Assembly (NCBI GenBank): GCA_036867785.1
Contig: CP145422.1
Location: 124,001 to 188,000, forward strand
Direction of reading: 5' to 3'
Length of the DNA: 64,000 bases
From: Plasmodiophora brassicae
Taxonomy: Eukaryota
The notes under the pieces are model-generated. The model saw only the letters and a program-made list of their open reading frames with translations, did no database searches and was not told the DNA's origin. Made by a program: the position numbers and the translations under genes. Every line of letters starts with the position of its first letter. Position 1 is the first letter of the stretch. Shown piece after piece: positions 13,267 to 40,102 of this stretch.

Positions 13267-13339
13267 TGTCCTCTTCGCGGATCGAACGCGAGACCTTACG
13301 ATCTTCAGTCGTACGCTCTCCCAACTGAGCTAAGAAGAC
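13267..13339 (-). tRNA. tRNA-Phe(GAA), copy 1
   Basis: GTCTTCTTAGCTCAGTTGGGAGAGCGTACGACTGAAGATCGTAAGGTCTCGCGTTCGATCCGCGAAGAGGACA; cloverleaf, anticodon GAA, no intron, downstream T-run. Confidence 0.96.
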
Positions 13340-13858: not shown

Positions 13859-13931
13859 TGTCCTCTTCGCGGATCGAACGCGAGACCTTACGATCTTCAG
13901 TCGTACGCTCTCCCAACTGAGCTAAGAAGAC
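13859..13931 (-). tRNA. tRNA-Phe(GAA), copy 2
   Basis: Identical 73-nt sequence; T-run downstream. Confidence 0.96.
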
Positions 13932-14733
13932 AGCGACGTGTATTGCGACGGTTCATACTGTACTCGGATATGGATCCGACACCTACCATAGGTTAACTGA
14001 TTTGGTAGTTGGACGCCTGATTGTGACATTGCAATTCCCGCGTCGAGGTGGTCAACAGCATCTGCCCCAGGGAACGACAAACGAGGAGGTGTATAGACAC
14101 AGACCAAGCGCGGCGGTCGCATGACGCCTCGATCGACGACACTGTTGTTGTGCAGCATCCCTCCAAGACTGTTTCTTCATATTCCGATCAGCATCGACAC
14201 CGGTTGCCCTCTGATCCCCGAAGAAGTTATCGCTGCCGGCATCCACGAAGCAGCACCCTTGGCAGCCGTCATCGTGTGACGGAACACCCCGCTTCGGCGC
14301 CACGAATGCGAACAGAGCAGGTTAGTCGCCAATGGCGCCGAACTAACCGACACGCCAGCTGCGATCTCACTCATCCCAGGACCGCCCAGTCACCGATAGT
14401 GGCCGGGTACAGAGGGTCGACGCCTCGGTAGGCGGACGGATGCGTCTCGTTGCGTTCAGTTTGCCAATTGTCTCGTGTGAGCGCGATAGCCGACGTCGCA
14501 CGGAATCGCGTGATCCTGAGATGTTGCCCAACTCGGACGATGCGTCGCCAACGTCGGTTCTATGCCTCCGAATGGGTGGCCAGTCCATTCGCGCCCGCTC
14601 GCTCCGATGCAGGCCCAGCCTCCGAAACCAACGGAGAGTATCTCACGTTCGGTCGTCGGGGACGTAGTGGTAGCAGAGCGTTTGTCGCGTAGAGAGCGCT
14701 GGCTGTCGATTGCGGTAGTTGCACGTCCCAGGC

Positions 14734-16575: not shown

Positions 16576-16754
16576 GGTACCCCTGCCCACGAAGCGTTCC
16601 AATCCTGGCCTCATTGTTCCTTGTCATTCATAAACGTTCCCCCTCCGCCTGTTTACTTGGGCCAATCGCGTTCAAACCAGGATGCCGTTTCCCGCTGGCT
16701 CTTGAATGGCCCGATGCCGCTCGTGGCCCCGATGGCGCCGGCAGCAACAAAAAA

Positions 16755-16827
16755 TGTCCTCTTCGCGGATCGAACGCGAGACCTTACGATCTTCAGTCGT
16801 ACGCTCTCCCAACTGAGCTAAGAAGAC
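16755..16827 (-). tRNA. tRNA-Phe(GAA), copy 3
   Basis: Identical 73-nt sequence; T6 immediately downstream. Confidence 0.96.
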
Positions 16828-17107
16828 AGCCACGCTGCGCACAATCATGAGGCGACCCAATGTGCGGGCACGGCCATGAACACGGGACAGTGCAGTCCCT
16901 CTCGCTCTCCTGCAGCATCCTACCGCGCCAATCGGGGCGTTTATTATCGTTGGGGCTCCAGCGCGAACGTCTTGGCGGCGACTTTCCAGTCGAGGTCGTT
17001 GACGTCGCAGGAACCTTCGCCGTACGGGTCCCAGCTCTTATCGAATGACCCCAGGTTCCTAGGGTAGCCAGGTTTAGATACCTAACGTCTGCAGCGTACG
17101 CCATTGC

Positions 17108-18043: not shown

Positions 18044-18752
18044 CGTTGCTTGCCTGTCCCTGGCACTGCCTGCAAGCTCTAGGCGGCTCTCGGCGCGCTA
18101 ATGTTACACATGCCCTAGCCGGTGCTCAGCGTGTTAGAGGGCCTGGGCGCCTGTGCATCAGACGACGACTTGCACCTGTGCTGAAGGTGCAGGGAGTTCA
18201 CCCATACGGGTCGGGCACGTCGGCAGGCGTCCAGCAGGACGCGCTGTGCTCGTCGTGGGTCGTGCAGCTGGTCTACGGCGACGTCGGCGCTGGCGCAGGT
18301 AGACGCGCCATGGCGTTGACGACCCGCGACGTGCGATGTCGAACACAGCGACATGTACCTGTTGTTGCAGTCTTGCAGACAGGCCCAGTTCAGCGGACGC
18401 TCACCACAGGGCTCGCACAGATCAGATGCGGCGCCTCTCCGACGTCAGGTGTCGCCGCCGGACCATGTACTGCCGTTGCCGGCGCATCGTGCCCAAGACC
18501 CTGACTGGAAACGCGGAAGCAATGAAGCGCGCGGATTAGCCATGGTTGATCATACAGGGCGCAGGTCTGCTGGAGAACGAGACGCCAGGCGGTGTTATCT
18601 ATGACTTGCAGGCAGGCTACATTCTTGGCGATACAGAAGAACGGTGGCACATGTGCCAACGCACACTGCAAGCTGCCTCTGATTTGTCCGATGGGGTAAC
18701 AAGGTGGAGATGCTCTGCGCGCACTTTCCAGCGACTGATTCTAATTTCAGAG

Positions 18753-20316
18753 ATGGCCGAATACGACGTGGACTGTGACAGCGAGGACAGCTGGGGTTCG
18801 TGCCTATTTGACGCCGACGACGTGATCGAGATCGACGACGATTTTTTCCAGCAATATGACGTCTCAGCCGACGTGCCCGATACGGAGGAGACCCCTGCCA
18901 TCGATATTCGACCTGATCGACCGTCCGTGTCCGACGTCGCCGATCCGAGGTCGGCCGAGTTCCTCACTGTCCACGATATCTGCCGTTCCGTGTTCGAATT
19001 CCTCGACCTTCGTTCGCTTATGCCCTGTCGATACGTCAGCAAGAAGTTTGGGGCGCACGCCAGGCACGCGCTCCTGCACCGATTCGTGCGTTACGCGAAG
19101 CGCACGCGCGAATCGCCGATCGGGGTCGCCGTCCGATCCGATAATCCGTTCATCATACGCTGCATGTTGAACGACCCGAGAATGCAGGAGTGGATCAATG
19201 CCGATGTGCGCATCGGGCCGGTCGACACCGGCACGCCGCTGATGCTCTGCGCCATGTTGGAGAACGCGCGAATGATGCGCGCCCTGCTCACCCAATCCGC
19301 CGTCGACGTCAATGCCATCAACGAGCATGGACAATCTGCCCTCTACCTAGCAGCGCTCTACTCCCTCATGCACGTCCAATGCGTCGACCTGCTCCTGGCC
19401 GACCCTCGCACCGACATCAACCTGCGCGTTGGCCCTAAACGCGAACCGATCCTGTCGTTCGCCATCGAACACAACCGCAACGATTTCGTCGACAAGTTCC
19501 TCCAGCACCCCCGGGTTCAACTGTGCGGTCTCGGCACGGACGACCACCCGACCGCATTCCACCTGGCGCGTTACCCGGAAACCTTGTCGCTCCTCCTCCG
19601 GAACATCACTGTTCCGATGCTCAGCATTGCCGATACGTCCGGGTCCACGCCTTTGCACTGCCTGCTGAAGGCAAAGGGCGCGAAGCTGCGTCACCTCTTT
19701 GACGTCGAACGCCGTGTTCTCGTGTTGATCCGGGACCAGGTCCCCGACGATGTCCTTCATCGAATCGATGCGCGGCGCTCGCTATTCGCTGATTTCGTCG
19801 CGTACTGTCGACCTGGACCTCTCCTCGACTACCTCCTGCTGTGCGGGCGTATCTCGCTGGACCTGCAAGACACAACGCTGGCCGCCATCGTCAACAACGA
19901 CATGAGCTGGAACCGGATCCTATCGCATGCTGCCATCGAGCAGCAGCTGCTATCGAATCCGTACCTGGTGCAAGTGTGCCTGGCGCGTGCAATCCAGGCC
20001 TGGTACAATTGCGATCGTGTCCGATTCGTCTGTGACCGATTCCGACCCGACCTGAATGCATTCCTGCCGACCGCGGCGATCGATGTCAGGCACAGGGTGC
20101 ATGGACCTGTTACGTCCTTCATGCTGGCGGCATGCGTCTTCGACCCGGGCGCGTTACACGTTCTCGTCCATCGGCGCGAGCACCAACTTCACCATCCGCA
20201 ACGTTAACGGATTCATGTCTGTGCACATGGTCCCTAACCATGACTTGCATCGCACACAACGCCAATATCTGTGGTGTATGGTCACCCCCGAGTCGCTCGT
20301 TGAAGTCGGGTGGTAG
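18753..20316 (+). pseudogene. F-box + ankyrin-repeat gene, copy A, frameshifted near the 3' end (stop at 20207 instead of 20316)
   Basis: F-box-like DICRSVFEFLDLRSLMPCRYVSK; ankyrins GTPLMLCA, GQSALYLAA, GSTPLHC; +1 nt near 20179 versus copy B; ancestral tail TNFTIRN..EVGW* lies in another frame. Confidence 0.75.
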
Positions 20317-20451
20317 ACAGGAACAAAACTGATTCGCTTATTCTCGTGCAAATAGCAGCATTTACTTCTTGGCTACGATTTTAGTCTGAAATCGGTTCAA
20401 CCGTTTCGCAGGACCAGTGTCAGGATCGCCGTTATCGCGTTGATGTTTTGT

Positions 20452-21260
20452 TCAATCTGACGCAGAGCGACGTCGAGCACCTGCCGATCGAACTGATCCC
20501 GGCACAGATCGCGAACGGCGCAAATCAGGTCCCTGGTAGGTGGAAGACGAGATAGGACAGGGCCCGCGGGAGCGATGCGCAGATTCGTTGGGCGGCGGCG
20601 ACTTGGAGGAACGATAACCGGCGCGGCTCTTCATCACCATCAGATCTGGGTGGAACCGCGATGCGTGAGCCTGGCTGAGGATGCGGCGCACGAACTCTAC
20701 AAAGACGGGGCGGAACACGGTTCGATGCAGAGGTGACCATCCCCACCCGTCGTTGAACGTCGTACGAAACACACGTCCGCCGTCGAAACGAATCAGTGCA
20801 TGGACCGGTCGGGAGAGCGGTTGATCATCGCACTCATAACATGAGCGGCGATGACTCTGGGACCCCAGTCGTCGAAGGTCGCGTGAGCAGCAGATCGGGA
20901 TATCGATGGAGGTGATCTGTCGATGGAGAGAGAGAGGGAGACATGCATGCTCTGGTGGTTCAGCCAGTAGTCGAAGCAGTGCAGGCGCGTGGGCACCGTC
21001 CGCCTCGCCTCCAAGCGGGCCTTCCAGGATGGATACAGGTACTACTCACTTACGGCCCGATACCCTACCGCCAGACTACGATCGGTCGGTTGCTGGCTTC
21101 TGCAAGGCAAAGCGCTCCTGTGTGCACATCACGGAATGGCTTGCCGACCAATTAGGCTTGCAGCTTGACCTGTCGTGGACGGCCAAGCACGTCGCTGCCG
21201 ACGCCCTCGATGACCGCGCGCGACCCGTCTGCGCCGGCCGCCGAGACCACGTCCCGCATG
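20452..21260 (-). CDS. Hypothetical multi-exon gene within unit A (5' part deleted in unit B)
   Basis: Stacked minus ORFs 21152-21367, 20793-21014 and 20452-20772; no recognised domain. Confidence 0.3.
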
Positions 21261-21386
21261 CCTAGTGATGAAGCGCTCGCGGTAGATCGGTTCGTCACAG
21301 ATCCACGCTTTGCATCAGCCATAAAGGGCGAACGAACGATTGAAACGACGCCTTGTTGGGAGTGCATTTATTTCCCGCTCCGGGTG

Positions 21387-21990
21387 TTACCAAGCGATCC
21401 CGTCACAAGTCCCGTCGAATAGCCACGTGCCGATGGTGGCGTTCCGGACGGATTGCAACTGCTGCGACAGCCGCGTGGATTTGGATCGTTCGGCCTCCCG
21501 ATCCCGATTGGCGTCGGCCAGCTGTCGGGAGAGCCGTGCATTGTCCCGTTCCAGATCCGCGACGCGTCGCTCTAGGTCGGCAACGACCTGTCGATGCTGT
21601 TCCCGTTCCGGGTCGACATCGACAGGCGACACCGACTGCTCCTCCTGACGTCGAGCGGCTTCCCTTTCGATCTGACTGGTCATGTCCGCCAGTTGCATCT
21701 GTAACCTGAGCAGAGCGTCTGAGAACGACGTCGGCGGTGTTGACGTTGATACCAGGGCTGTGTGACCTGACGTTCTCCTGGGCCTGTGCATCAGACGACG
21801 ACTTGTACCTGTGCTGAAGTTGCAGGGTGCCCACCTGAACGGGTCGGGCACGTAGGCAGGCGTCTTGCATCATGACGCGATGTGCTCGTCGTGGGTTGTG
21901 TCGCTGGTCCGCGGCGACGTCGGCGCCGGCGCAGGTAGGCGCGCCATGGCATTGACGACCCGCGACGTGCGATGTCGAACGCAGCGGCAT
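21387..21990 (-). CDS. Chimeric junction ORF: new N-terminus fused to the duplicated coiled-coil 3' exon
   Basis: ...SSSDAQ|AQENVR reads through the 21777-21783 junction; second exon LQMQLADMTSQIERE matches 24471-24790. Confidence 0.4.
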
Positions 21991-22382
21991 GTACTTGTTG
22001 CTGACGACAGGCCCAGTTCAGCGGACGCTCACCACAGGGCTCGCACAGATCAGATGCGGCGCCTCTCAGACGTCATGTGTCGTCGCTGGACCATGTACTG
22101 CCGTTGCCGACGCATCGTTCCCAGACCCTGACTGGAAACGCGGAAGTAATGACGCGCGCGGTCTACCCATATGGTGGATCATACAGGGCGCAGGTCTGCT
22201 GGAGAACGAGACGCCAGGCGGTGCTATCTATGACTTGCAGGCAGGCTACATTCTTGGCGATATTAGAACGGTGGCACATGTGCTAACGCACACTGCAAGC
22301 TGCCTCTGATTTGTCCTATGGGGTAGCCGGGTGGAGATGCTCTAAGTCGCGCACTTTCCAGCGACTGATTCTATTTTCAGAG

Positions 22383-23945
22383 ATGGTCGATGACGGCGTC
22401 GACTGTGACAGCGGGGACAGCTGGGGATCGTGCCTATTCGACGACGATGACGTGATCGAGATCGACGATGAGTTTTTCCAGCAACATGACGACCCAGGCG
22501 ACGTGCCCGATACGGAGGAGACCCCTGCCGTCGATATTCGACCTGATCGACCGTCCGTGTCCGACGTCGCCGATCCGAGGTCGGCCGAGTTCCTCACTGT
22601 CTACGATATCTGCCGTTCCGTGTTCGAATTCCTCGATCTTCGTTCGCTTATGCCCTGTCGATACGTCAGCAAGAACTTCGGGGCGCACGCCAGGCACGCG
22701 CTCCTGGACCGATTCGTGCGTTACGCGAAGCGCACGCGCGAATCGCCGATCGGGGTCGCCGTCCGATCCGATAATCCGTTCATCATACGCTGCATGTTGG
22801 ACGACCCGAGAATGCAGGAGTGGATCAATGCCGATGTGCGCATCGGGCCGGTCGACACCGGCACGCCGCTGATGCTCTGCGCCATGTTGGAGAACGCGCG
22901 AATGATGCGCGCCCTGCTCACCCAATCCGCCGTCGACGTCAACGCCATCAACGAACATGGACAATCGGCCCTCTACCTAGCAGCGCTCTACTCCCACGTG
23001 CACGCCCAATGCGTCGACCTGCTCCTGGCCGACCCTCGCACCGATATCAACCTGCGCGTTGGCCCTAAACGCGAACCGATCCTGTCGTTCGCCATCGAAT
23101 ACAACCGCAACGATCTTGTCGGCAAGCTCCTCCAGCACCCCCGGGTTCAACTATGCGATGTCGGCACGGACGAACACCCGACCGCTTTCCACCTGTCGCG
23201 TGACCCGGAAACCTTGTCCCTCCTCCTCCGGAACATCACTGTTCCGATGCTCAGCATTGCCGATACGTCCGGATCCACGCCTTTGCACTGCCTGCTGAGG
23301 GCAAAGGGCCTGAAGCCGAATCACGTCGCCGAGATCGAACGCCGTGTTCTCGTGTTGATCCGGGACCAGGTCCCCGACGATGTCCTTCATCGAATCGATG
23401 CGCGGCGCTCGCTATTCGCTGATTTCGTCGCGTACTGTCGACCTGGACCTCTCCTCGACTACCTCCTGCTGTGCGGGCGTATATCGCTGGACCTGCAAGG
23501 CGCAACGCTGGCCGACATCGTCAACAATGACAGGTGCTGGGAAAGGATTCTATCGCACGCCGCCATCGAACAGCAGCTGCTATCGAATCCGTACCTGGTG
23601 CAGGTGTGCCTGGCGCATGCAATCCAGGATTGCAAGAATGGCAAACGTGTCCGATTCGTGTGTGACCGATTCCGACCCGACCTGAATGCATTCCTGCCGA
23701 TCGCGGCGATCGATGTCAGGCACAGGGTGCATGGACCTGTTACCTCCGGCATGCTGGCCGCATGCGTGTCCGACCCGGGCGCGTTACGCGTTCTCGTCGA
23801 TCGGCGCGGCATCGACTTCACCATCCGCAACGGTAACGGACTCACGGCTGTGCACATGGTCCCTAACAATGCCTTGCATGACACACATCGCGAATATCTG
23901 AAGCGGATGGTCACCTCCGAGTTACTCGCTGAAGTCGGGTGGTAG
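22383..23945 (+). CDS. F-box + ankyrin-repeat protein, copy B (intact, about 520 aa)
   Basis: Same motifs as copy A plus terminal ankyrin GIDFTIRNGNGLTAVHM; uninterrupted ORF. Confidence 0.85.
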   Translation: MVDDGVDCDSGDSWGSCLFDDDDVIEIDDEFFQQHDDPGDVPDTEETPAVDIRPDRPSVSDVADPRSAEFLTVYDICRSVFEFLDLRSLMPCRYVSKNFGAHARHALLDRFVRYAKRTRESPIGVAVRSDNPFIIRCMLDDPRMQEWINADVRIGPVDTGTPLMLCAMLENARMMRALLTQSAVDVNAINEHGQSALYLAALYSHVHAQCVDLLLADPRTDINLRVGPKREPILSFAIEYNRNDLVGKLLQHPRVQLCDVGTDEHPTAFHLSRDPETLSLLLRNITVPMLSIADTSGSTPLHCLLRAKGLKPNHVAEIERRVLVLIRDQVPDDVLHRIDARRSLFADFVAYCRPGPLLDYLLLCGRISLDLQGATLADIVNNDRCWERILSHAAIEQQLLSNPYLVQVCLAHAIQDCKNGKRVRFVCDRFRPDLNAFLPIAAIDVRHRVHGPVTSGMLAACVSDPGALRVLVDRRGIDFTIRNGNGLTAVHMVPNNALHDTHREYLKRMVTSELLAEVGW

Positions 23946-24470
23946 GCATGAACAAATGTTGATACTCTTTACTCTCCTTCAAACCGCAGCATTTACTTCT
24001 TGTCTCTTGACTACGACTTTAGTCTGAAACCGGGTTCAACCGTTTCGCAGGACCAGTGTCAGGATCGTCGTCATCGCGTTGTTCAATTTGACGCAGAGCG
24101 ACATCGAGCACCTGCCGATCGAACTGATCCCGGCACTGACCGCAGATGTCGCAGATCAGGTCACCGGATACGCGTAGGTCGAAGACGAGATAGGATAGGG
24201 CCCGCGGGAGCGATGCGCAGACTCGTTGGGCGGCGACTTGAAGGAACGATAACCGGCACGGCGCTTCATCATAGATCTGGGCGGAACCCCGATACGTGAG
24301 CCTGGCTGAGGATGGGGCGCACGAATTCTACAAAGACGGGGCGGCATACGGACCGGCGCGGTCGCGGTGGGTCGGTTCGTCATAGATCCACGCTTTGCAG
24401 CAGCGATAAAGCACGAACGAACGGTTGAACGACGCCTTGTTGGGTGTGCATTTATTTCCCGCTCCGGGTG

Positions 24471-25170
24471 TTACCAAGCGATCCCGTCACAAGTCCCGTC
24501 GAATAGCCACGTGCCGATGGTGGCGTTCCGGACGGATTGCAACTGCTGCGACAGCCGCGTGGATTTGGATCGTTCGGCCTCCCGATCCCGATTGGCGTCG
24601 GCCAGCTGTCGGGAGAGCCGTGCATTGTCCCGCTCCAGATCCGCGACGCGTCGCTCTAGGTCGGCAACGACCTGTCGATGCTGTTCCCGTTCCGGGTCGA
24701 CATCGACAGGGGACACCGACTGCTCCTCCTGACGTCGTGCGCCTTCCCTTTCGATCCGACTGGTCATGTCCGCCAGTTGCATCTGTAACCTGAGCAGAGC
24801 GTCTGAGAACGACGTCGGCGCTGTTGACGTTGATACCAGGGCTGTGTGACCTGACGTTCTCCTGGGCGATCGCCATCAGGCTATCGAGGTCGAGATCAAT
24901 TTCAGGTCGCGGCGACAGGTCAATCAAAGCATCGTCCGAATGGCGCAGCGGATGGCCGGCACCCTCGCCTTGTGTCTGCGTTGACGCCTCCGTTAACGTC
25001 CGCAATGGCGTCGACGTCGGCGAGTTCGACACATGGCGACCGGCCAGTGCTGGCGACGCCAGCGCCCTGTTATACCGAACCGTCGGCGTCCGGACACCCG
25101 ACGCAGATGACGACAGGCGGCGGCGCTCGCGTTGCGCCCCCTCGTGCGGCGATGATGACGTCGACGGCAT
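24471..25170 (-). CDS. Hypothetical coiled-coil protein (2 exons)
   Basis: Exon 1 MPSTSSSP..AQENVR, intron about 24791-24852, exon 2 heptad-rich VADLERRVADLERDNARLSRQL. Confidence 0.55.
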
Positions 25171-25535
25171 CGCCCACGCCCCCCTCAGCGGACAATGTGC
25201 GCCACCTGGCAGTCAGTGACGATCACCGAACGGCTGTCACACATATAGGCGTCGACTGATACAGGAGGCGGCATTTTCGTCCGTGACTGCAGCTGGGGAA
25301 ACTGCGCCACTGGAACTGCAATCCCGCAGCAATGGGCGCCGGGTCCGTCGTGGCTGCTGCCCGGACAGCGCCGCCTGCACGGGCGACTACCGACTCCTCA
25401 TGCGGGGGAAGCGACCCCGTTCTTCGTCATCGGCGTCGGTTCGCCGGTCCTGGTCGTCGTCAGAACATGGGGGACCGTGACGCCCCCGCCGCACCCGGCT
25501 ATCGACCGCCCCTATTCTTGGATGCGGCTGGCTGG

Positions 25536-27914
25536 ATGCTGATCGGTGCCCGTCGAGCCGCTGGATGGCGGGTCATCAGGCGATCGGCATCCAGCTCTGC
25601 TGTGACGTCGTCGGCGCCGCATGACGTCGACGACGACGCAGCGGGCACCTGGCGTATCGTGCGGCGAAACGCGCAGCTGGACGCGTCGTTCCGCCTGCAG
25701 GAGTTCATGATGTCCCCGACGGTCCCCGGCGCCGTCCGCCTGCTGAAGGAACTGGTGGACGCCGACCCGTACGGCGGCTGGGCCGTATTTCAACGCGTTC
25801 TGACGTCGTCGCGCCGCCTGGCGCCCTGTGTCCCGTTCTTCCAGGCGATGATGTCGTTCTGCCACCGGTGCATACCCGGGAAAGGCCCGCACGTCTTCGA
25901 GGCGGCCAGGTCGCGCGATGTCCCCGGCTGGGAGACCCTGTTCGGCTCGTTCGTCACCCTGTGCCTGGGCACGTCGCCGCCCATGGTCGACGAAGCCTGG
26001 GCGGCGTACCGGTCGTCAGGCATCCGCACCCATGACGCCATCTACAGCATGGCGCACATCAGCCGAGTCGGGCAGCGGCCGCGCGCCGCGCGCCGCCTCG
26101 TGCAGGACGCTCTGGACGGCAAGGTCGCGTTCACCGAGAAGCTCGTCTCGACGTTCGCCGCGTGCTGCATCGACGACGCCGAAGTCGCCGAGCGGCTCCT
26201 CGACGTCACGCTGCGGTCGCGTATCAACAACCAGCCGCTGGTTGCCAACCTCGTCAAGGCGTTGGTCGCGGGCGGCCGGTTCGGGCGCGCCATCCACGCG
26301 ATGCAGCAGGTGGAGGCGGGCGGCGCCCCGCCTTCGGAGCACGCGTACAACCTTGTGGTTGGCGCGTACACGAGGGCGGGGCGCCTGGCGTCGGCGATCG
26401 ACCTCGTCCAGCGGATGCTGGACCGGGCGGTGCCCGTCTGCCTGCCGGTCCTCTGCGCGTTGATCGTCGCCTGCCGTCACGACGCGCCTGCCGTCCGCCG
26501 ATTGCACGACGTCGTCGTTGTGCGTCGCCCGCTGCTGGACGAAGACGTCGTCGTCTGCGCCTTCATATCCGCGTTTGGCCATTGCGGCGACGTCGCATCC
26601 GCCGAGAACGTGTTCCGGTCCTGGACCGGGCGCCCGTCCATCACCGTCTTCAACGCGATCATCGGCGCGTACAACCGCAACAACGCCCTGCTGAAGGCGA
26701 TCGAAACGTTCGACGCCGTGCGACGCGCCGGCCTGCACGTCGGCCCGCCGATCCACGCCAGCATGCTCGCCGTCTTCGCCAAGGCGAACCGGATCCCGCA
26801 AGCGCTGGCCCTGCTGCGCTCGTCGGCGCGCGACGCTGTGGACCGCGACCCGTCCCTGTTCGCGATGCAGGTGGCCGCCTGTGCGCGATGCTCCGACCTG
26901 GCCGCCGTCCACGAATTGCACAGGTACGCGCGCGCCAGCCCGCCGGCGCCGCCTGTCGAGGCGGCCCTGATCGCCGCCTACGCCGCCTGCGGCCAGCTCC
27001 ACGACGCGCTGAACGTGTTCCAGAGCGGGAAGTGGCCGCCAACGCTGGCGACGCTGAACGCCGTCATCGACGCGTACGCCGACCATGGCGTGCTGTCGTC
27101 CGCCATGGGCCTGTTCGCCCGCATGAAACGGGCGCGTCTGCGACCGGACCGTTCCACGTTGCTGTCGCTCCTGAAGGCCTGCAGCAACAGCCGCGACCTG
27201 GAGGCGGCCGTCGCCATCGTCGCCGAGTTCGCGGGCGCCTGGCGGGTCCGTCTGGCGTCGGACCACGTCCGGCACCTCGTCGATCTGTACGGGCGCACCG
27301 GCGACCTGGACACGGCCGAGCGCCTCTGCCGCACCTCGGTGCACGCGCTGTCCGCCCTGCGCGCGTGCCGCCGGCACCGCGACGTGCCTCGTGGCGCCCG
27401 CGTCTTTGCTCGCCTGCAACAGCCAGCTGACGACGTCGCCCACGCCCTGCTGTCCGACCTGTACGCCTCGGTGGGATGCGCCACGAAACGCGCGACGACG
27501 TCGCAAGGGCCGACGACGCTGATGCTTCCCGGGAGCGCGCTGCGTTTCGCGACGAACGATCGGCGGCTGCAGACCGATGGGAACCTTCGGCAACAGCATC
27601 GGAGCATGCTGGCCGACCTGCGGGATCGCGGGTACCAACCCGACGTGTCGGGCGTCGACGGCGACGTCCTGGACGACGCCCTGCAGGCGAGCTGCGTCCA
27701 CAGCGAGAAGATCGCGCTGGCGTACGCGTTGCGCGTCCTGCCACCGGGAGCGCCCGTCTTCGCGTCGAAACCCGACGGCATCTGCCCCGACTGCCACGAC
27801 GTCCTGAAGCGCGTCTCGGCGCTGTACAGGCGCGACGTTGGCGTCCGCGATCGGAACGCGTATCACCGTTTCCGCGATGGGCGCTGCTCCTGCGACGACT
27901 ACTGGTGTATATAG
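25536..27914 (+). CDS. PPR protein with C-terminal DYW cytidine-deaminase domain
   Basis: PPR motifs (AYNLVVGAYTRAG, AFISAFGHCGD, VFNAIIGAY, ALIAAYAACG, LVDLYGRTGD); GYQPD, HSEKIALAY, CPDCH, HRFRDGRCSCDDYW; Arg/Ser-rich presequence-like start (upstream ATG 25332 also in frame). Confidence 0.92.
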   Translation: MLIGARRAAGWRVIRRSASSSAVTSSAPHDVDDDAAGTWRIVRRNAQLDASFRLQEFMMSPTVPGAVRLLKELVDADPYGGWAVFQRVLTSSRRLAPCVPFFQAMMSFCHRCIPGKGPHVFEAARSRDVPGWETLFGSFVTLCLGTSPPMVDEAWAAYRSSGIRTHDAIYSMAHISRVGQRPRAARRLVQDALDGKVAFTEKLVSTFAACCIDDAEVAERLLDVTLRSRINNQPLVANLVKALVAGGRFGRAIHAMQQVEAGGAPPSEHAYNLVVGAYTRAGRLASAIDLVQRMLDRAVPVCLPVLCALIVACRHDAPAVRRLHDVVVVRRPLLDEDVVVCAFISAFGHCGDVASAENVFRSWTGRPSITVFNAIIGAYNRNNALLKAIETFDAVRRAGLHVGPPIHASMLAVFAKANRIPQALALLRSSARDAVDRDPSLFAMQVAACARCSDLAAVHELHRYARASPPAPPVEAALIAAYAACGQLHDALNVFQSGKWPPTLATLNAVIDAYADHGVLSSAMGLFARMKRARLRPDRSTLLSLLKACSNSRDLEAAVAIVAEFAGAWRVRLASDHVRHLVDLYGRTGDLDTAERLCRTSVHALSALRACRRHRDVPRGARVFARLQQPADDVAHALLSDLYASVGCATKRATTSQGPTTLMLPGSALRFATNDRRLQTDGNLRQQHRSMLADLRDRGYQPDVSGVDGDVLDDALQASCVHSEKIALAYALRVLPPGAPVFASKPDGICPDCHDVLKRVSALYRRDVGVRDRNAYHRFRDGRCSCDDYWCI

Positions 27915-27920
27915 CAGCAG

Positions 27921-29270
27921 TCAACGTGACGTCGCCAGGTTGTGATAGTACGACGGGACCGTGTTCTTCTCCGCCTGGACGGCCTCGAGGATCTGCCGCC
28001 GCTGGAACGCGGCGCTGATGCCGATGCACTGCAGGTCGGCGTCGTCGCATCGGACCAGGGCGGCGCCGTCGACGCCGAACTCCTCGATGCGCTTGACGGC
28101 GCCCGACCCGATATGCCGCTGGCGCAGCCAGGCGGCGACCTGTGCGCGCGCGCGGCGTCAGCGATGACGGTTCGTTGCGGGTGCAGCTCCGCGCAGTCCG
28201 TGGCCTGACCTGTGCGCAGGACCACGACTGCATCGTGTCGGACGCGGCGACGCGCACGCGCCACGTGATGGCGGCGCGCAGTTCGTGCTCGACGAGCTGC
28301 GCCGCCTGCTGCGCGATCGTCAGCTGCGGGTCCAGGGCGCACGCCTGGCGGAAGTTCGCCAGCGCCTGGCTCGGCAGGTCCAGCTGGCGGTACGCGCGCC
28401 CTGTCGACACACGAAGGCACGCGTCATCGCCACAGCAGTATGATGGCGCCCCCACCTACCGCGGACGTATAACAGGACGGCGCAGGTCGGCGATTTGATC
28501 AAGGCACGGTTGACCGTGTCGAGCGCGGCTCGCGGGCGGCCTGCACCTAACAGCGCTACCGATTGCGCCATACAGAGGGCGGTTTCGTCCGCTTCGTTAT
28601 GCTCCGCATCCGGTTCCAGCGCCTTGACGTAGTCGTTCGAGATCACGGACGCCCAGGCGCGGTGCGCGTGACGCCCGGCCGCATGCGGCAGGGCCACGCG
28701 CGTGGCGTCGTCGCTCAGCATCGCAGCGTATTGCTCCAGGTCCAGCAACGTTGGGTTGTCCGGGTCGCGTTCGGCGACCCATTCCAGGTCCGATCGTGCT
28801 GGGGCCAGCTGCCCGAGCTGGCAGTGGACCCCGGCCCGGGACAGCCGGTACTCGACGTCGGCCTCGTTGTCGAGTTGCACGGCCCTGTCCAGGTCGTCAA
28901 GGGCGCCCTGCAGGTTCCCCTGGCGGCGCAGCGCGACCGCGCGCAGCCAGTACGCGAACGCGGGCGCGTCGTCCTCCCCCTGCGACGAGATCGCTGTCGT
29001 CAGGTCGCGGACCGCCATCGGCATGTCCTGTCGCTGGACATGCGTCCAGGCGCGGTCGATCAGGACGGTCGGGTCCGCTGGGCGCTCCTTCAGGCACTCG
29101 CCGTAATCCGCCAGTGCTAGCGCGAACGCGCCCGACGCCATGTGCGCCCAGGCGCGGAACTGCCTGGCGAACGTGTTCGTCGGGTCGGCGTCCAGGGCCG
29201 CGTCGGCGACGCGGACCGCCTCGGCATACCGCCCGTCGGACAGCAACCGCTCGGCGCTGGCGATCGCCAT
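27921..29270 (-). CDS. TPR protein with C-terminal SAM domain
   Basis: TPRs in 28320-29270; after introns WSCAQ|VAAWLRQRHIG..VDGAALVRCDDADLQCIGISAAFQRRQILEAV (SAM pattern); TGA 27921-27923. Confidence 0.7.
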
Positions 29271-29319
29271 CGCGTACCACGCGCTTGTGATTCATTCGTA
29301 TCTGGACGACGTGCCTGTA

Positions 29320-29802
29320 TTACGGGCCGGCAGGGACTTCGACTTCTTCGATGCCCGGATGGGGCTTCAAGGACGACCTGCCGAGCAGGGCGTCGGTGGC
29401 CCTAGCGACATGGTCCGGCTGGACGTCGGGCTGCGCGTCGAACACGCCGACCATCAGGTCCATGTCGATGGCGCGCGATTCGGCGTCCTCCAGCGGCAGC
29501 TCCATTCGGTCCTGGTCGCCCAGCAGCTCGTTCGCCTTCTGGATCTTGGGCAGGAAGTGTCGCACGCGTTCCAGCAGCGTCGCCGTCGACGTGCCCTCGC
29601 TGGCGGACATGGCCGACGCCGTCAGCGACAGGTTGCTGAGCGAGACGGACGGTCTGACAGGTTCGTGAGCGGTCAGAAACGAACGCGAACGAGCGCGCGC
29701 GCGCACTGCTTACACGTTGGAGTAGACGGCCGGTGACGAGAACGGCGTCCGGCCGGGGTTGGGCGACGCGATCGCCGCGGGGCGCCCGTTCGAAGATGAC
29801 AT
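29320..29802 (-). CDS. NOPCHAP1/DUF4598-like small protein (start uncertain)
   Basis: LLERVRHFLPKIQKANELL..IDMDLMVGVFD; C-terminal IEEV. Confidence 0.6.
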
Positions 29803-30074
29803 GCGTGCCCCGCGTAGCCGCACGGGTCGCTGCGCTGACGCGGATGAACGGCGCAGCCCCTTCTGTCTGCTGCCGATAATGTCCTCAATCGGCCGAAACT
29901 CCGTACGGACACCGTGGCGGCCCCCGGCCGTCGCCCCTGTGCCCCGTACCCGAAATAGCCGCCCACCACGGCTGGTGGCGCTGCATGCGGGCCGTGACCA
30001 GCGTATGGACCTATGCCGGCCCCGGATGCGCTAGTCAGGTACATATACACCCGTTATATTATGTCTTCGGAAAT

Positions 30075-32258
30075 TTACAGGTCTGCTGCCGAGGCGCAGT
30101 GGACGCAAGGGCACCAGCAGTCGATCCGGTAAATGGAGCAGGACGTCGTCGCGTCCTGGATGAGCATCTGGCAATTGCAGAGCCATCGGACCTCGCGCGG
30201 GCTGCCCAGCGTGCGGATCTTCGCCAGCGATTGCCTGCAGCCGTGCACCAGGTCCCATATTTCGACCCGGATCGTGACCGGCGACTCCATCGACAGCGGC
30301 TCCTCCAGGAAGTCGTCCGACTCGTCCGAGTCGAAGTCGCGGTCCGAGTCGTAGTCGAACGTGATCTGCTGGCGTAGCGTCAGCACCGCCAGCCGGATCC
30401 CATCCGGCGACGCAGCCAGGATCCAGTCGCTGGTTCGCGACCGCGCCTCGTACGGCACTGTGTACAGAGCGGACCCATCGCAACGGTAGGCGACGAGCTC
30501 GAACGTGCTGGGCGACAGCGTTTTCCGAATCGAGTACATAAATCGGCCGTCGCGCGCGATCGCCAACGGGTTATCAACACTGGGATCGCCCGGGTCGCGA
30601 ACCACCGCCACGTTCCGCCACTGGAGCGACGCAAACTGTGCCGCGTCGAGCAGCGCGGGCGGGTCATCGGCCCTGCAGACGGCAACCCGGACCTCGACGT
30701 CGAGGTCGTAGATCGACCCGACGCCGGCCAGCCGGACCAGGCCGCCGTCCGGCGTGGCGACCACCTGGTAGGTGCCACCGTACCGCAGCCCGTTGCTGGG
30801 CCCGGGCAGATCGAGGCGCTTCACCGGCGAACCGTCCGGTTCCAGCTCGTACAGGGCATTGTCTGACAGCACCGACAGGCGGCGCCCGTTCACAGAATAG
30901 CACGCGGCGCGGAACGGACCCGGATGGTACCGGTGCGACCCGTCGGCGAGGCGCACGACAACGACGCCGGCCGGTTCCGGCCACACCTGGTTCCCGTTCG
31001 CGTCGAACGCCGTTGCTGACGCGCCCCCGTTCGGGTCGCCGGCGTACGTCTCGACGGCGACGGCGACCTGCGTCCCGTCCGGCGACACGCTCGTCCCGCC
31101 GTGGACGACGACGTACCGGTGCGCCGGCAACGGGTCCAGACAGTTCCTGGCGACGATGACGCGCGGTTCCAGGCGCAGGTCGGTGCGCAGCATCGTCAGC
31201 GAGCGGCTGTCGCTGCGGTAGACGACGAGGCGGCCGCAGGTCGAGAACACGGCCGACCGTGGCACGTCGTCGATCGTGCCGTACAGCGACAGCGCCGGCG
31301 ACCGCAGCGCGACCCGCGATCGCACCACCGAGTGAAGCCGGGCGCGCTGTACAGAACGCAGGTCGTCCAGGTCCAGGAACCGGGCGACGACGACGAGGAC
31401 GTCGTGGGGCAGGCGGCTCAGCGCCCCGAGCGGCGGATCGTGCGGGCCGGCGTCGTGCTCCGGTCGGGCACGCCCCGGATCTGGGAACCCCCAGCGGGAC
31501 AGCGGGATGCGGACGTCCCTGCCGACGTCGTCGTAGGCGCACAGGCAGAACCGGTCCATGTCGAACCGCGGGCGGAACATGCCCAGGCCACAGAAGACGT
31601 AGCGCGACGCCGACGACGTCGTGACGACGACGACGCCGCAGACCGCGCTGCGCGTGCTTCTGTTGACGAGGTCGACCGCCAGGAGACGATCCGCGCAGGT
31701 CGCCACCGATCGGATCCCGAGGCAATGCGCCTTGTGCGACGGGGCGTCCAGCACGGACGGCAGGCGCCACTGCCCGGCCGGTTTGGGTCGGGTCGACGCG
31801 CGCTGCGGGTCGACGAGCTCGACGACGACGGAGCAGCCGGCGTCCAGCGGGCCGATGCAGACGCGGAACCGGCCGCATGACGATCGCGTCCATTTGTGCT
31901 TCCGGTCGCGACGTTGCTCGTCGCGGGGCGATACGAGAACGTCGTCGTCATCGGCGACGGCGTCGACGCGTTCGGCGCGCGACACGCAATCCTGGCACCT
32001 GCTGACGGCCGGGTTTCGACGCCACTGGTTGTTGCTGTACCCGGTCCGGTCCACCGCCTGCCGGCACTGCGAGCAGACGCGCGACGGCACCCGTCGCGGC
32101 CCGTGATGCACGGGGGCGCCGGGCCGGGCGGGCACGGCCGTCCCCCCGACGCACCGCCGGCATCGCCCTGCGTCCGCCGGCCGCTGCCATTGCGTGTAGC
32201 TGAAGCCGGACCGAGGCACCGTCGCCCGGCACTGCGAGCAGACACGCGTCGATGGCAT
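30075..32258 (-). CDS. Two Stc1-like C4 zinc modules + F-box + beta-propeller-like C-terminus
   Basis: CSQC..FSYTQW..CRRC and CSQC..YSNNQW..CQDC; LSRLPHDVLVVVARFLD; SPDG-type propeller motifs; 727-aa ORF. Confidence 0.65.
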   Translation of the reverse strand: MPSTRVCSQCRATVPRSGFSYTQWQRPADAGRCRRCVGGTAVPARPGAPVHHGPRRVPSRVCSQCRQAVDRTGYSNNQWRRNPAVSRCQDCVSRAERVDAVADDDDVLVSPRDEQRRDRKHKWTRSSCGRFRVCIGPLDAGCSVVVELVDPQRASTRPKPAGQWRLPSVLDAPSHKAHCLGIRSVATCADRLLAVDLVNRSTRSAVCGVVVVTTSSASRYVFCGLGMFRPRFDMDRFCLCAYDDVGRDVRIPLSRWGFPDPGRARPEHDAGPHDPPLGALSRLPHDVLVVVARFLDLDDLRSVQRARLHSVVRSRVALRSPALSLYGTIDDVPRSAVFSTCGRLVVYRSDSRSLTMLRTDLRLEPRVIVARNCLDPLPAHRYVVVHGGTSVSPDGTQVAVAVETYAGDPNGGASATAFDANGNQVWPEPAGVVVVRLADGSHRYHPGPFRAACYSVNGRRLSVLSDNALYELEPDGSPVKRLDLPGPSNGLRYGGTYQVVATPDGGLVRLAGVGSIYDLDVEVRVAVCRADDPPALLDAAQFASLQWRNVAVVRDPGDPSVDNPLAIARDGRFMYSIRKTLSPSTFELVAYRCDGSALYTVPYEARSRTSDWILAASPDGIRLAVLTLRQQITFDYDSDRDFDSDESDDFLEEPLSMESPVTIRVEIWDLVHGCRQSLAKIRTLGSPREVRWLCNCQMLIQDATTSCSIYRIDCWCPCVHCASAADL

Positions 32259-32851
32259 TCGACAGCCACCGACCAGCGCCGCACCACGCCCGCCAAATAT
32301 AATAATTCGGCTGCAAATGCAATAATATCCAATTGCCCATCAGTGAACGTCCAGAACAATTTTGCTGGCTGGTACCGAGGCGGAGGAAATGGGGTTCGAG
32401 CACCTTTAATTTGGAAATCGTCACCCAAACGTTGGAGTTGAGCACCTACGCCACTGACGCTCACCACCTACCAGTTTGGGACATACCGGGAGTGGGCATT
32501 CTGTAATAATTTCGTCTACTGGTGGCCAACGCAGGCGGACTCCAGTAGACGAAAGTAAAATTTATACTTCAGTCCTTCGTCGCCCCACGAAGCACGATCT
32601 GCTTCCATCACTTCGGCAGGACGGCGCCAGCCGTCGACACGGGGAACAGTCGACGTGGCGGCGTCCGCATTCGCCAGCCGGCGCCGGCGACCGCCCGCGG
32701 CATACACAGTTCGCGCGTGCCATCTGTTGACGATCATAATTTTAGGGGAATGGCGAATGGGCGGAATGGCGCGGGGCGCCGACGACCCTCTGTTCTATTT
32801 TCGTGACCGTGTGCGTCGGCGGTCGTTGTACCGAGACGAGGGTCGCGGCGG

Positions 32852-33213
32852 ATGGGGACGGAGGATTCCGGCGACGGCGACCACTACGAGGTCAACGATG
32901 CCGTCCAGGCCGACTGGCAGCAGCGCGAGTTCGTCGAGATGCTCAAGATGAACATGGTCAAGATCGTCGCCGTCCTGAACCGATTCGGTACGATCGTTCG
33001 TGGGTTGCGCACTGCCGCGACGTCAACTGCTCACGTCATCGTCCAGATGCGTCCGCGCGGGAGCGCTTGTCCAAGATCAACGATCGGATTGGCACGCTGG
33101 AGAGAAATATCGAGTACGTGCCCGCTGTGGAATAGCCACCAAAACCCGACTTGCTCATGCTGGTTCTGTTCAGGTATCTCGAGGTTCTGCTCGGCAGCGA
33201 CAAAGGACAATAA
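32852..33213 (+). CDS. BRK1: BRICK1 (WAVE/SCAR complex subunit)
   Basis: VQADWQQREFVE..LNRF|DASARERLSKINDRIGTLERNIE|YLE; 2 introns. Confidence 0.9.
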
Positions 33214-33246
33214 ACACCGACCTCCACGATTGTATACGCTGTTCGG

Positions 33247-33521
33247 TCAGCACCGGTCGATGCCTTCAGTGGTCGCCACCGGTCGCCGCAGCTCGCAAAC
33301 AACCATGGCGAGGGCCTCCGGGTTGACGCCAGCCTCGCATAGCGACACCAGTATGGACAGCGTCTCCCGATCCAGGCCCGTGTTCAACGCCTCCGATATC
33401 TCGTGCAGCACTGCCGGCAACGTCAACGCACGCCCCCCGACGAGCCACGCCGGTGCCACGACTCACCGGACAGCGCCTCCCGGGCCTGCGCATCCGCCGC
33501 CTTCGCCTGGCCTTCTTCCAT
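33247..33521 (-). CDS. MZT1: Mitotic-spindle organizing protein 1
   Basis: [41 protein letters not shown]. Confidence 0.9.
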
Positions 33522-33789
33522 CGCGGACGCCGCCGCACTTGTTACGAACGACGACGGCCCGCCGAGCGCCCCATTTGGAACATGGACCCACAACAACGTC
33601 CCCCTTTATTTCGTCCACTAGACCCGCAGCTGCACCGGAGCCATCGGGACGTCTCCGAGGTTTCACCCACGCGCGTGCAGACAACCAGCCGGGCTGCAGT
33701 GCACGCGTTTTGCTGACGACGTGGGGAGCTGCAGCACGTCGGCCGGAACGTTCCCGGGGGGCGGCAGCGGCGCTATTTAAATTATAAGG

Positions 33790-34671
33790 TCAGATTGCGA
33801 AGGTTATGGTGACGACGACGGCGATCGTGCCGACGAGGTGGCAGGTCTGGGGTGGCGACCGGGAGCAGGCGGCGGCGGCGCTGCCGCGGCGGTCGGGCTC
33901 GGTGGCGAACCCGAAGCGCGGGTCGGTGAGGACCCAGGCGGACGCGCTGCCGCCGATCAGGCCCCCGATCAGGATCGCGGACGATGGCGACATGGTTGTC
34001 GGCCGAGGCGCCGCCGCACGTGGCAACGGGCGCCTGTGGGCCGACAAGGCCGTCGCACGAAGTCGCCTGACAGCTGCCGCGCCGTACTTCCTGGCCAGCA
34101 GCCCCAGCGCTAGAACGCTTCCGGACGCGACCAGGGCACGCCGGGTTAATCGTCGTCGTCCGACCTCGTTCCGGTTCGGGCGCACGTGCTCGTCGTGCCA
34201 TGGTGCGAACGGGGACACGATGGGCGGGAATCGGATGTCGAAGGTCATCTCGCTGTCCAGGGTGGCGACGGTGACCTCATCCTGCAGCGCCCGCACCGGT
34301 GCGCCCCCGCTGAAACGACGGGCACTTTCCGGTAGGAGGATCCGGCGCGTTGCCGTCGTGGTGACGTTGCCAAAGATGCCGTTATCCGGGCGAACCATCC
34401 TGACCAGGTCGACGGACGGGGTGACGTGCGGCGTCCGGACCCAGATCGTAATCACGTACATCTCGAAGTCTTCGTCATCCTTGATCTCTATCGTACGGTA
34501 GGAGCCTCGCGGCCAGGGAACCTCGCAGCCGTCGCTGTCGAAGAATTGCGTCAGGTCCACCTTGGACAGCACTACGAGCGCTCGGCTCCGGAACGTGAAC
34601 TCCACGACTGTTTCTGCTGCCGCTGCTACGACGGCCATGCACAGGCAGGCAACGGCAACGTGCCAGGGCAT
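33790..34671 (-). CDS. Hypothetical secreted/membrane protein
   Basis: Signal peptide MPWHVAVACLCMAVVAAAA; hydrophobic segments in the C-terminal part. Confidence 0.55.
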   Translation of the reverse strand: MPWHVAVACLCMAVVAAAAETVVEFTFRSRALVVLSKVDLTQFFDSDGCEVPWPRGSYRTIEIKDDEDFEMYVITIWVRTPHVTPSVDLVRMVRPDNGIFGNVTTTATRRILLPESARRFSGGAPVRALQDEVTVATLDSEMTFDIRFPPIVSPFAPWHDEHVRPNRNEVGRRRLTRRALVASGSVLALGLLARKYGAAAVRRLRATALSAHRRPLPRAAAPRPTTMSPSSAILIGGLIGGSASAWVLTDPRFGFATEPDRRGSAAAACSRSPPQTCHLVGTIAVVVTITFAI

Positions 34672-34810
34672 CCCGCGTCGTTCGACGACTGCCCGTGCGG
34701 CGGCACAACGGCGGCGCCTGCCAAAAATAGCGAATTGCGGCGCATATTCCGTATCGCTGCATGTTCAGTCCGACGGTCGCATGTCCAAACCAACCGTCGA
34801 CGTGGCGGCT

Positions 34811-35738
34811 TTACTTTGATTGCCGGTACATCCGCGACTGGACGATGATGAGAACGTCGAAGGCGAGCGTGCCGATGCTGCCGAGCAGGTACGGGAGCTT
34901 CTTGACGCAGAACTCGGCCCAGAAGTTGTCCGTGACGACCGGCGCGGCTTGCTCGATGACGGCGTCGACGATGATCCGCAGGCCGTACGTCGTGTTCGCC
35001 GCCACGAACAGCATGAACATGGCCGGGGACAGGTCGTCGCAGCGCTTCTCCTGGTAGTTCTTGACGACCTGAGGGATACGCGCGAAAAAGAACAACGCAT
35101 TGCCGAGCCAGGCCAGGACGGTCCCGGTCGTCGTCACCCAGAACGCCAGATTCTCCTCGGGAACGCAGAGCACCTTGTTGTCTTGGAGCAGCGTCCTGGA
35201 CGCAGCCGATGACGGTACGGTCGTGGACGTGAACGACGACAGGGTTCCCGTGGTGAACAGCGCAACGCCGAACAGAGCAACAGCCGCCTTCCTCGTCGCC
35301 GACGTCCTCGCGCCGTATCGCTTCGGGTAGACGCGGTTGTAGTAGTACATCTGCGACAGCATGACGGCGTCATCGAACAGGAAGTACCCGCCGAGGACAA
35401 CCATGGTCAGCGGCTGCTGCAACAGGACACTTGATATGAAGTTCGAAATGTCAGCGACGGCGCGGACGACGATGAACGCTGCCGATAGCGATTCGCAATG
35501 CTTGTTGCGGTAGTTGCGCCAGTACTGAGGCAGGCCTGCCGTCATCCATGCCAGGATGGACAATACGCCTGCAAGGTGACGTCAGGACGCGGCGTACGGC
35601 ACAGACGGGGAACGACGAACCCAGCATTGACGGGACATATTCGAGCGGCGTGTAGACGCATTCGCCAAAGACGGTCCCCATGAACTGAGAGTACCGGTAC
35701 CCATTCTTGTAGATCGGTTCGCATTCACACCACGCCAT
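34811..35738 (-). CDS. PQ-loop transporter (PQLC2/Ypq-like)
   Basis: GLPQYWRNYRNKHCESLS and ARIPQVVKNYQEKRCDDLS; PYLLGSIGTL. Confidence 0.85.
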
Positions 35739-36699
35739 CGCGGACGCTTGCAACGGATTTGCAATTGGGCGCTCCCGTCAGCGATCAGGTCACCCCGAAG
35801 CAACAACGCAAAAGAAAGTCCGTGGCTGACTGGCCCTACAGCTCGGCCGACTGTAGCAGCAACGCCTGCGCCCAGCACCGCTGTGTCGGCCGCCTGTGGC
35901 CGGTGCACTCCGTAGCCAGCAGCCCGCTCACGAACGAGGTCGCTTAAGGTTGGCCCGTTTCAGGATCCGAAACGTCAGCTTCTGATTATTAGGTAGACTG
36001 ATCGGGACGTTCTTTCCGTTGCACCGTTTTAATGGTTCCCTGGAGAGTCGTTACGTACTATGACGTTGCCAAAGAGTTCGGGATGAGGGCGCTACCAGCC
36101 AACGGTTCCGGGCGCTGGTTAACCACCTTCGGCGGTTCGAGACCGTTTTGCGATCGGGTCTCTGCAACGTTTCGTATCTGGGCAATATAGGCTATATACA
36201 CCCAAGTGTCGCTTAGTTAAGCGAGCGAGTTTCGGGGCCTCGTAACAACACGACAAGCTGGGTTGGTCGTGTCACGATCGGAGAGTGTTGAGGTATTCGC
36301 AGACAATATGAACATGTTGAGTTATTCTCCACCGAGCTACGCTGCAGCCGCGTACGACGGGGAAAGAAGGCGCGTCCTGTGATCAAAGTGCCGAAACGAT
36401 TACTGGCGCATCGGGACCGCTGCGCTGCGGCCAAGAGCAGCTATCGAAGACGATGACTGTTGTTGAGCATAATGCTGCACAGTATAGATATTCTCGAATG
36501 CTGAACTCGTTCGGTTACGGTAACTTAAGACAGAAGGCACAACACCCCAGATGTTGTTCAGTTCCTAGCGGAAAAGTAACATTTCCACTGGCAGTAACAG
36601 GTCCTGTGCATCTGATCTGACGGGTTGATCCCAGTACAGTATGTTTGGTTCAAACGTGCTCAGTGATGTTTTGTCAGGAATCCACAGCGTGCTGCCAAG

Positions 36700-40100: not shown

Positions 40101-40102
40101 CA

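Follow-up and report, generated by a model that had tools for sequence, protein, structure and literature searches.

DYW-type RNA-editing factors outside plants, known since 2010, are few and scattered, and each lineage that holds them bears on whether plant-type editing was passed on by gene transfer. What, then, does such a factor do in the clubroot pathogen Plasmodiophora brassicae? The stretch of DNA analyzed here (the window: 64,000 nucleotides [nt] of GenBank assembly GCA_036867785.1, contig CP145422.1, positions 124,001 to 188,000 of the forward strand) carries a gene for a pentatricopeptide repeat (PPR) protein that ends in a DYW domain. Most likely, this protein acts on specific RNA sites in the mitochondrion as part of a C-to-U editing system, while its capacity to deaminate is uncertain. 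The parts of the gene are listed below by their positions in the window; domain and residue numbers throughout, such as amino acids (aa) 120-300 for the N-terminal module (N-module), follow the 860-aa frame starting at 25332, except those of the N-terminus, which count from 25536.

25536..27914, + strand: PPR-DYW coding sequence, 792 aa plus stop, no intron
25492..28146, + strand: unspliced coverage by RNA-type contigs (outermost ends of the three contigs that hold the PPR-DYW gene alone)
25536..25640, + strand: Arg-rich, acid-poor N-terminus, presumed mitochondrial presequence (composition, disorder)
25689..26231, + strand: family-specific N-module, aa 120-300 (phmmer, predicted helices)
26232-26636 and 26637-27041, + strand: two 135-aa four-motif units, P, P-like, L-like and S-like (self-similarity)
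26869, + strand: single-base difference, A here but T in every run's contigs; turns Gln513 into Leu
27045..27338, + strand: terminal P2-L2-S2-like triplet (HMMER alignment to 9kfx over aa 542-858, motif positions)
27339..27506, + strand: shortened E1/E2-like linker (paralog alignment, model)
27507..27905, + strand: DYW cytidine-deaminase domain, aa 726-858 (Pfam, structure alignments, model)
27768..27797, + strand: active-site strand K-P-D-G-I-C-P-D-C-H (mapping to OTP86)
27906..27914, + strand: two extra codons, Cys-Ile, and the stop after the DYW triplet (sequence, strain variants)

The deaminase domain and its gene

A first-pass annotation, made from the letters alone, had described a PPR array and a full DYW domain with HSE, CPDCH, HRF, CSC and DYW motifs, and both were recovered by Pfam, with every motif located. 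The PPR match to the frame had an E-value of 4.7e-24, and DYW_deaminase (PF14432) matched aa 767-858 at 1.4e-21, scoring 76.6 bits against a cut-off of 24 and spanning model positions 1-93 of 93. The motifs run in the order of a PG box variant (QGPTTLML), a gating insertion, HSE (27699-27707), CPDCH (27783-27797), CSC (27885-27893) and DYW, which ends at 27905, with H845 lying in YHRF. Against solved structures, HMMER found the synthetic PPR-DYW protein 9kfx (2e-72, aligned over aa 542-858 through S2, E1, E2 and DYW), DYW1 (7w86, 3.7e-22) and OTP86 (7o4e, 4.2e-17). The roles of OTP86 residues as zinc ligands, catalytic Glu and gate Lys are taken from PMC7611903 (papers are cited here for their passages on the point at issue). 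The Zn1/catalytic residues H790, E792, C818 and C821 align to OTP86 H892, E894, C920 and C923, the gate residue K813 aligns to K915, and the Zn2 ligands H822, H845, C852 and C854 align to H924, H947, C954 and C956; the Zn2 columns are invariant in all 108 rows of the tree described below.

An AlphaFold model of aa 700-860, built with 33 aligned sequences, reached a predicted local distance difference test score (pLDDT) of 89.1 and a predicted template modeling score of 0.80, and the domain is predicted to be a cytidine-deaminase fold interrupted by the gating insertion. When this model was compared with known structures by Foldseek, the best six rows were all DYW structures (9kfx, 7o4e, 7o4f and 7w86) with template modeling (TM) scores of 0.63-0.86: 9kfx at E 1.8e-12 and TMq 0.80, 7o4e at TMt 0.86, and 7w86 at TMt 0.85 with a root-mean-square deviation of 1.4. 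Matches in the ESM Atlas were plant and rotifer DYW clusters only (0.87-0.91).

The 860-codon open frame spans 25332-27914 (+), with an upstream stop at 25284 and in-frame ATGs at 25332, 25467 and 25536; the exact 792-aa sequence is NCBI entry P0132. Contigs of four sequencing runs, from four studies, were placed on positions 20000-36000. The RNA nature of these runs was deduced from spliced introns and not from run records: they were treated as RNA-derived because the contigs lack seven neighboring introns and show one poly-T loose end, and the contigs carry no expression level, strand or true transcript ends. Introns 24788-24848, 29654-29713, 32987-33045, 33114-33173 and 35568-35619 were spliced out in all four runs and two further ones in two runs; the neighbor introns measure 52-63 nt and end in GT..AG (or CT..AC). 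The PPR-DYW gene was covered by single gapless contigs (X14, 25492-27963; X13, 25533-28068; X11, 25546-28146), and the X4 contig, at 24107-28147, holds the gene together with its neighbor, intron 24788-24848 having been spliced out. With gapless contigs in the same four runs that splice the neighbors, the gene is supported as transcribed and intronless, the latter as the first-pass annotation had it. The start at 25536 is weakly favored because three contigs begin downstream of the ATGs at 25332 and 25467. Likewise, the 204 bases of open frame at 25332-25535, in which the P0133 version has an in-frame indel, are probably 5' leader, since the starts of three RNA contigs fall within or downstream of them.

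GC content at third codon positions (GC3) is 0.889 in the PPR-DYW gene compared to 0.73-0.88 in four neighboring frames. Because of this neighbor-like GC3 and the RNA contig that bridges to a spliced neighbor, we regard the gene as native, and for practical purposes contamination and chimeric assembly with plant DNA, the latter a concern raised at first pass, are ruled out. The intron style of the flanking genes had been cited against plant contamination at first pass; the bridging contig ties the gene to a neighbor with the local 52-63 nt introns. The Leu read at residue 513 in all four runs is also found in database versions P0002 and P0134; the A/T difference at 26869 is a strain difference or an assembly error, and the change is not of the editing type. 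Two joints, 26992/31379 and 27244/27692, were considered as splices and rejected, as long contigs run through both and their ends are non-canonical. Deep contigs in three or four runs match 18-30 letters on each side of a 447-base skip (flanks 27212-27244 and 27692-27721) or a 4386-base skip (26992 and 31379), and such short-sided joints are probably cross-matches of other transcripts, perhaps from paralogs.

A lineage-specific protein plan and its paralogs

The presequence-like N-terminus proposed at first pass holds up as far as a crude count can carry it: the first 20 aa contain 5 Arg or Lys and no Asp or Glu, and the first acidic residue is residue 30. In the full-length model the first 35 aa have a pLDDT below 50, indicating disorder, and the highest 10-residue Kyte-Doolittle mean of the N-terminus is 0.58, which leaves it with no hydrophobic signal-peptide core. 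Most paralog models likewise begin with an Arg-rich, acid-poor segment lacking a hydrophobic core. By this crude measure of composition, the N-terminus appears compatible with import into mitochondria rather than with secretion.

The full-length model (pLDDT 87.1) forms one continuous solenoid with the deaminase at its end. An N-module of about 170 aa, predicted as helical hairpins that run into the PPR solenoid, was matched by phmmer in all 32 family rows tested (E 2e-16 to 9e-42, self-match excluded) and also occurs in family members without a DYW domain, e.g., PBRA_008562; none of the eight other PPR proteins tested, seven of them with a DYW domain, was matched. The PPR array that follows has about 11 recognizable motifs. 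Its strongest self-similarity offset is 135 aa, and the four-motif units at aa 301-435 and 436-570 align in register with 34 of 107 residues identical. A peak at the plant PLS period (98-106 aa) was seen in none of 22 clade rows versus 28 of 49 other rows, by crude autocorrelation and not by motif typing. The E-like region claimed at first pass stands in part: HMMER aligned aa 643-725 to the S2-E1-E2 stretch of 9kfx, and the family consensus in the paralog alignment carries S2-, E1- and E2-like motifs, while neither Pfam E_motif nor Eplus_motif matched the frame at E <= 0.1 and about 11 aa of E2 are missing from the window copy.

We compared this plan with that of land-plant PLS-type PPR-E-DYW factors (OTP86, DYW1 and the synthetic 9kfx). 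The order of terminal P2-L2-S2, E1/E2-like and DYW segments is alike, as are the HxE, CxxCH and HxxxxxxCxC zinc signatures, the gate Lys and the predicted fold. The land-plant factors have a 101-aa PLS period whereas the window protein has its 135-aa four-motif unit, and the N-module of about 170 aa is extra to the window protein. The plant PG-box consensus is PGxSWIE; the window's QGPTTLML and the P. brassicae family form PGxT(S/T)LxL are both unlike it. CPDCH, the window's form of CxxCH, is the commonest form in the family, compared to CGDCH in rows outside it. Relative to the land-plant factors, the window copy also differs by Pro-Asp-Gly in place of Asn-Leu-Arg, a shortened E2, a 2-aa tail and the missing Pfam E_motif match.

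An exhaustive HMMER search with aa 700-860 returned 1666 proteins at E <= 0.001, of which 864 also passed E <= 1e-10. Names were looked up for 20 of the best matches, and 14 of these 20 were clusters with P. brassicae names, mostly 'DYW domain-containing protein', with XXQ37939.1 and XXQ38131.1 among them. Adding P0005 and the window protein gives at least 16 P. brassicae PPR-DYW paralog clusters; the count that had been proposed as a check was thus obtained through protein databases and not genome-wide. For the tree, 108 of 156 matches were kept and 48 were dropped for partial DYW coverage; 89 of the 108 rows are unlabeled, and labeled Naegleria, Acrasis, Physarum, paradinid, fungal, rotifer and early-plant sequences lie outside the sample. 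All 16 P. brassicae rows, together with 5 unlabeled ones, fell into a 21-row clade with an ultrafast bootstrap of 100 and a Shimodaira-Hasegawa-like approximate likelihood ratio test (SH-aLRT) value of 91, values that are rough because the bootstrap stopped short of convergence (correlation 0.818). In a quick tree built beforehand, the clade had 25 rows and an SH-aLRT of 97. The three angiosperm-labeled rows fall outside the P. brassicae clade. The DYW phylogeny suggested at first pass sets the family apart from these three rows; it bears on this separation and not on a plant or protist origin. One unlabeled relative, P0152, lies just outside the 21-row core and still has the N-module, with a Gly, Ala, Arg and Pro (GARP) fraction of 0.18 versus 0.26-0.39 in the P. 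brassicae rows. Since its amino-acid make-up is so different and the N-module is nevertheless present, the family probably predates P. brassicae.

The catalytic Glu of HxE is kept in 10 of the 16 paralog clusters and missing from 6, so in a family that edits, part of the membership would have to work with no catalysis of its own. The clusters lacking Glu are P0005 (HSV), P0141 (HSV), P0144 (HSD), P0150 (HCT), P0154 (HVD) and P0160 (HGP); all keep the zinc Cys and His residues, and they resemble those plant editing factors for which a DYW domain has to be supplied in trans. The other P. brassicae DYW proteins (e.g., XXQ37716.1, XXQ39038.1 and PBRA_002018) share clade, N-module and architecture with the window protein at 35-53% identity; the E2 deletion, the Pro-Asp-Gly strand and the tail are confined to the window copy. 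The 90% cluster of the window protein comprises one NCBI entry and three Logan-derived sequences and holds no UniRef or PBRA_ entry, so the gene seems absent from the older annotation.

Two side observations concern the family. A second member lies about 27 kb downstream of the PPR-DYW gene, at 55211-56698 (+). It encodes 495 aa, 31% identical to the window protein over 449 aa, with its copy of the N-module at 55304-55840; it stops after the PPR units and has no DYW domain, there being no room for one before the tyrosyl-tRNA synthetase frame at 57279. For paralogs P0149, P0150 and P0304, some NCBI names say '(mitochondrion)' though the sequences lie on contigs of 1.3-2.1 Mb, which looks like a labeling slip in one deposited assembly and not evidence of location.

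Editing, recognition and origin

According to the reading we favor, which is probable on present evidence, the window protein serves a mitochondrial C-to-U editing system. By homology, it would be imported into the mitochondrion, attach through its helical repeats to a specific RNA site or a small number of them, and use the DYW domain to convert a cytidine close by into uridine. The window copy retains the catalytic Glu and every zinc ligand. Paradinids (Ascetosporea) belong to the same supergroup and the same Endomyxa assemblage as plasmodiophorids. PPR-DYW proteins accompany mitochondrial C-to-U editing in these Rhizaria, in which, according to the 2025 report, such editing had previously never been reported (PMC11946409); plasmodiophorids are unmentioned in that paper (0 occurrences). 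Naegleria and Acrasis likewise have DYW-type PPR genes alongside C-to-U editing that has been confirmed in their mitochondria (PMC4202320). Compared by description, Naegleria gruberi and Acrasis kona resemble P. brassicae in having nuclear PPR-E-DYW multigene families (11-12 genes) with lineage-specific expansion (PMC4202320), and they differ in that editing is demonstrated there and only proposed here. Paradinids and fungi share a two-residue deletion between HxE and CxxC (PMC11946409). In the window protein, again compared by description, the His-to-Cys spacing is 28 residues, which is also the commonest value in the other rows, being seen in 13 of the 25 rows of the clade and in 57 of the 83 outside it, with none shorter.

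Several points weigh against this reading. The inference of targeting comes from a crude composition count of the N-terminus only. When the motifs were read by hand against the plant PPR code, the only pairs of fifth and last residues that look canonical were N576/D606 and perhaps N306/S335; most motifs mismatch that code, and no RNA target was predicted for this reason. Beside the first zinc Cys, the equivalents of OTP86 N916, L917 and R918 are Pro, Asp and Gly, with the Lys and the zinc ligands retained; about 11 aa are missing from the second half of E2; and two residues follow the C-terminal Trp, which in OTP86 packs onto the Zn2 site (PMC7611903). Full-text literature searches, with subscription journals outside their reach, turned up no work on plasmodiophorid DYW proteins or RNA editing and no editing data for plasmodiophorid mitochondria. 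The passages of the P. brassicae mitochondrial genome paper that we cite describe annotation difficulties and report no RNA editing, the term occurring only in the reference list (PMC6823432). Finally, Naegleria and Acrasis have 11-12 DYW genes for just two confirmed sites (PMC4202320), so how much editing takes place cannot be read from the number of genes.

The changes in the window copy deserve a closer look, as the first-pass annotation, right about the intact HSE and CxxC motifs, had missed those of the strand, E2 and tail. In the 108 tree rows the three strand positions are Asn in 95, Leu in 89 and Arg in 97. OTP86 L917 stacks on the edited base, and R918, highly conserved, sits above the C-terminal Trp (PMC7611903). 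In addition to the E2 deletion there are linker gaps of about 8 aa ahead of it and about 5 aa at the S2/E1 border; these are unique to the window copy among the 21 DYW-bearing rows of a 23-row alignment, and its model lacks the second E2 helix. Whereas 127 of the 150 best matches end at Trp, only the window protein has a 2-aa tail. The Cys-Ile tail is also present in strain variants P0133 and P0134, and two variant sequences from the window protein's cluster, one with differences at 9 other residues, have identical strand, E2 and tail features. These features are not sequencing errors of one assembly. With the Leu, the Arg, part of E2 and the free C-terminal Trp lost, the window copy may be a weak or altered deaminase or may serve site recognition only.

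An alternative that we consider rather unlikely takes this further: the product would be a PPR protein of the mitochondrion that has lost the deaminase activity of its DYW domain and binds specific transcripts, recruiting an active paralog in trans or serving stabilization, cleavage or splicing. The replacement of Asn-Leu-Arg, including the base-stacking Leu, the shortened E2 and the extended C-terminus speak for it, and with 6 of 16 paralog clusters lacking the Glu such members seem tolerated in the family. Plant DYW domains can be recruited in trans (PMC7611903), and the P. brassicae mitochondrial genome is reported to have 54 introns (PMC6823432). However, none of the four Zn1/catalytic residues or the four Zn2 ligands has been lost, the DYW fold is predicted with high confidence, and two strain variants with differences in other parts of the protein have the same DYW region.

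The remaining explanations place the protein or its origin in the host. Highly improbable is the effector idea voiced at first pass, by which the protein would be secreted, reach the organelles of the host plant and change RNA editing there. The organism does live within plant cells, and a clubroot preprint, whose 'organellar RNA editing' concerns host PPR genes, reports night-time up-regulation of PLS-class PPR genes (10.1101/2025.01.31.635897); those are genes of the host, not of the parasite. The Arg-rich N-terminus without a hydrophobic core is of a kind common to the whole family and lends the idea no support, and the literature search found no paper tying P. brassicae DYW genes to effectors. 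Least probable of all, to the point of being barely credible, is that the assembly contains plant DNA here or that the gene was recently acquired from a host plant. Named matches outside the P. brassicae clade are indeed angiosperm PPR-DYW proteins, 32-43% identical in the DYW region, and the terminal S2-E1-E2-DYW order is plant-like. Against this stand the neighbor-like GC3, the RNA contig joining a spliced neighbor, an N-module seen in 0 of 8 other PPR proteins tested and a 101-aa PLS period found in 0 of 22 clade rows versus 28 of 49 others. The recent host derivation considered at first pass is further contradicted by the gathering of all 16 P. brassicae rows in one clade (100/91) with the three angiosperm-labeled rows outside. 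This evidence bears on contamination and recent transfer only, not on an ancient transfer.

Returning to the favored reading of a mitochondrial editing factor, a broader picture may be put forward tentatively, as a possibility that is doubtful as a whole: plasmodiophorids, which are obligate parasites within plant cells, would run plant-like mitochondrial C-to-U editing with about twenty PPR-DYW factors built on a plan of their own lineage and derived from a land-plant ancestor. These factors would combine the N-module with a non-PLS array and a DYW domain that is catalytic in some and Glu-less in others, the Glu-less ones having to work in trans, and the Pro-Asp-Gly copy would have either changed chemistry or a pure recognition role. 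If the land-plant ancestry were true, the clubroot pathogen would be the first plant parasite known to have adopted the RNA-editing machinery of its host's lineage. With at least 16 genes, the family leads to the prediction that plasmodiophorid mitochondria edit C to U, and if this editing is real, the mitochondrial gene models of a crop pathogen need correcting. The family is also a natural experiment in DYW function, with the Glu kept in 10 of 16 clusters, lost in 6, and one substrate strand rebuilt.

Interest is limited by the fact that these proteins are already public, UniProt and NCBI having automatically named the P. brassicae paralogs 'DYW domain-containing protein'. A 2026 survey counts 31 DYW domains in Rhizaria, which may include those of P. 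brassicae (PMC13386178). The family seems so far undescribed in the literature found, and its variant architecture seems unmentioned in the passages of these papers on DYW proteins.

Other features of the window

The PPR-DYW gene sits in the first of two high-GC blocks, 26001-32000 and 40001-48000, in which GC content is 69-72% versus 55-62% elsewhere in the window. A GC content of about 60%, short introns and the presence of chitin synthase fit P. brassicae. The tyrosyl-tRNA synthetase frame matched, after its own entry at 100%, a Spongospora subterranea protein at 82%, with no separate P. brassicae entry among the matches. Upstream of it lies a tandem duplication, 18232-20327 and 21868-23956, with a period of 3.63 kb and 85-95% identity in four blocks. 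Each duplicate carries an ankyrin-repeat gene (18651-20207 and 22383-23945), and RNA contigs that appear to go back by about 3629 bases reflect this duplication. Three tRNA-Phe(GAA) genes with identical Rfam scores lie on the minus strand at 13266-13339, 13857-13932 and 16754-16828, the first two upstream and the third downstream of a chitin-synthase frame at 14734-16575.

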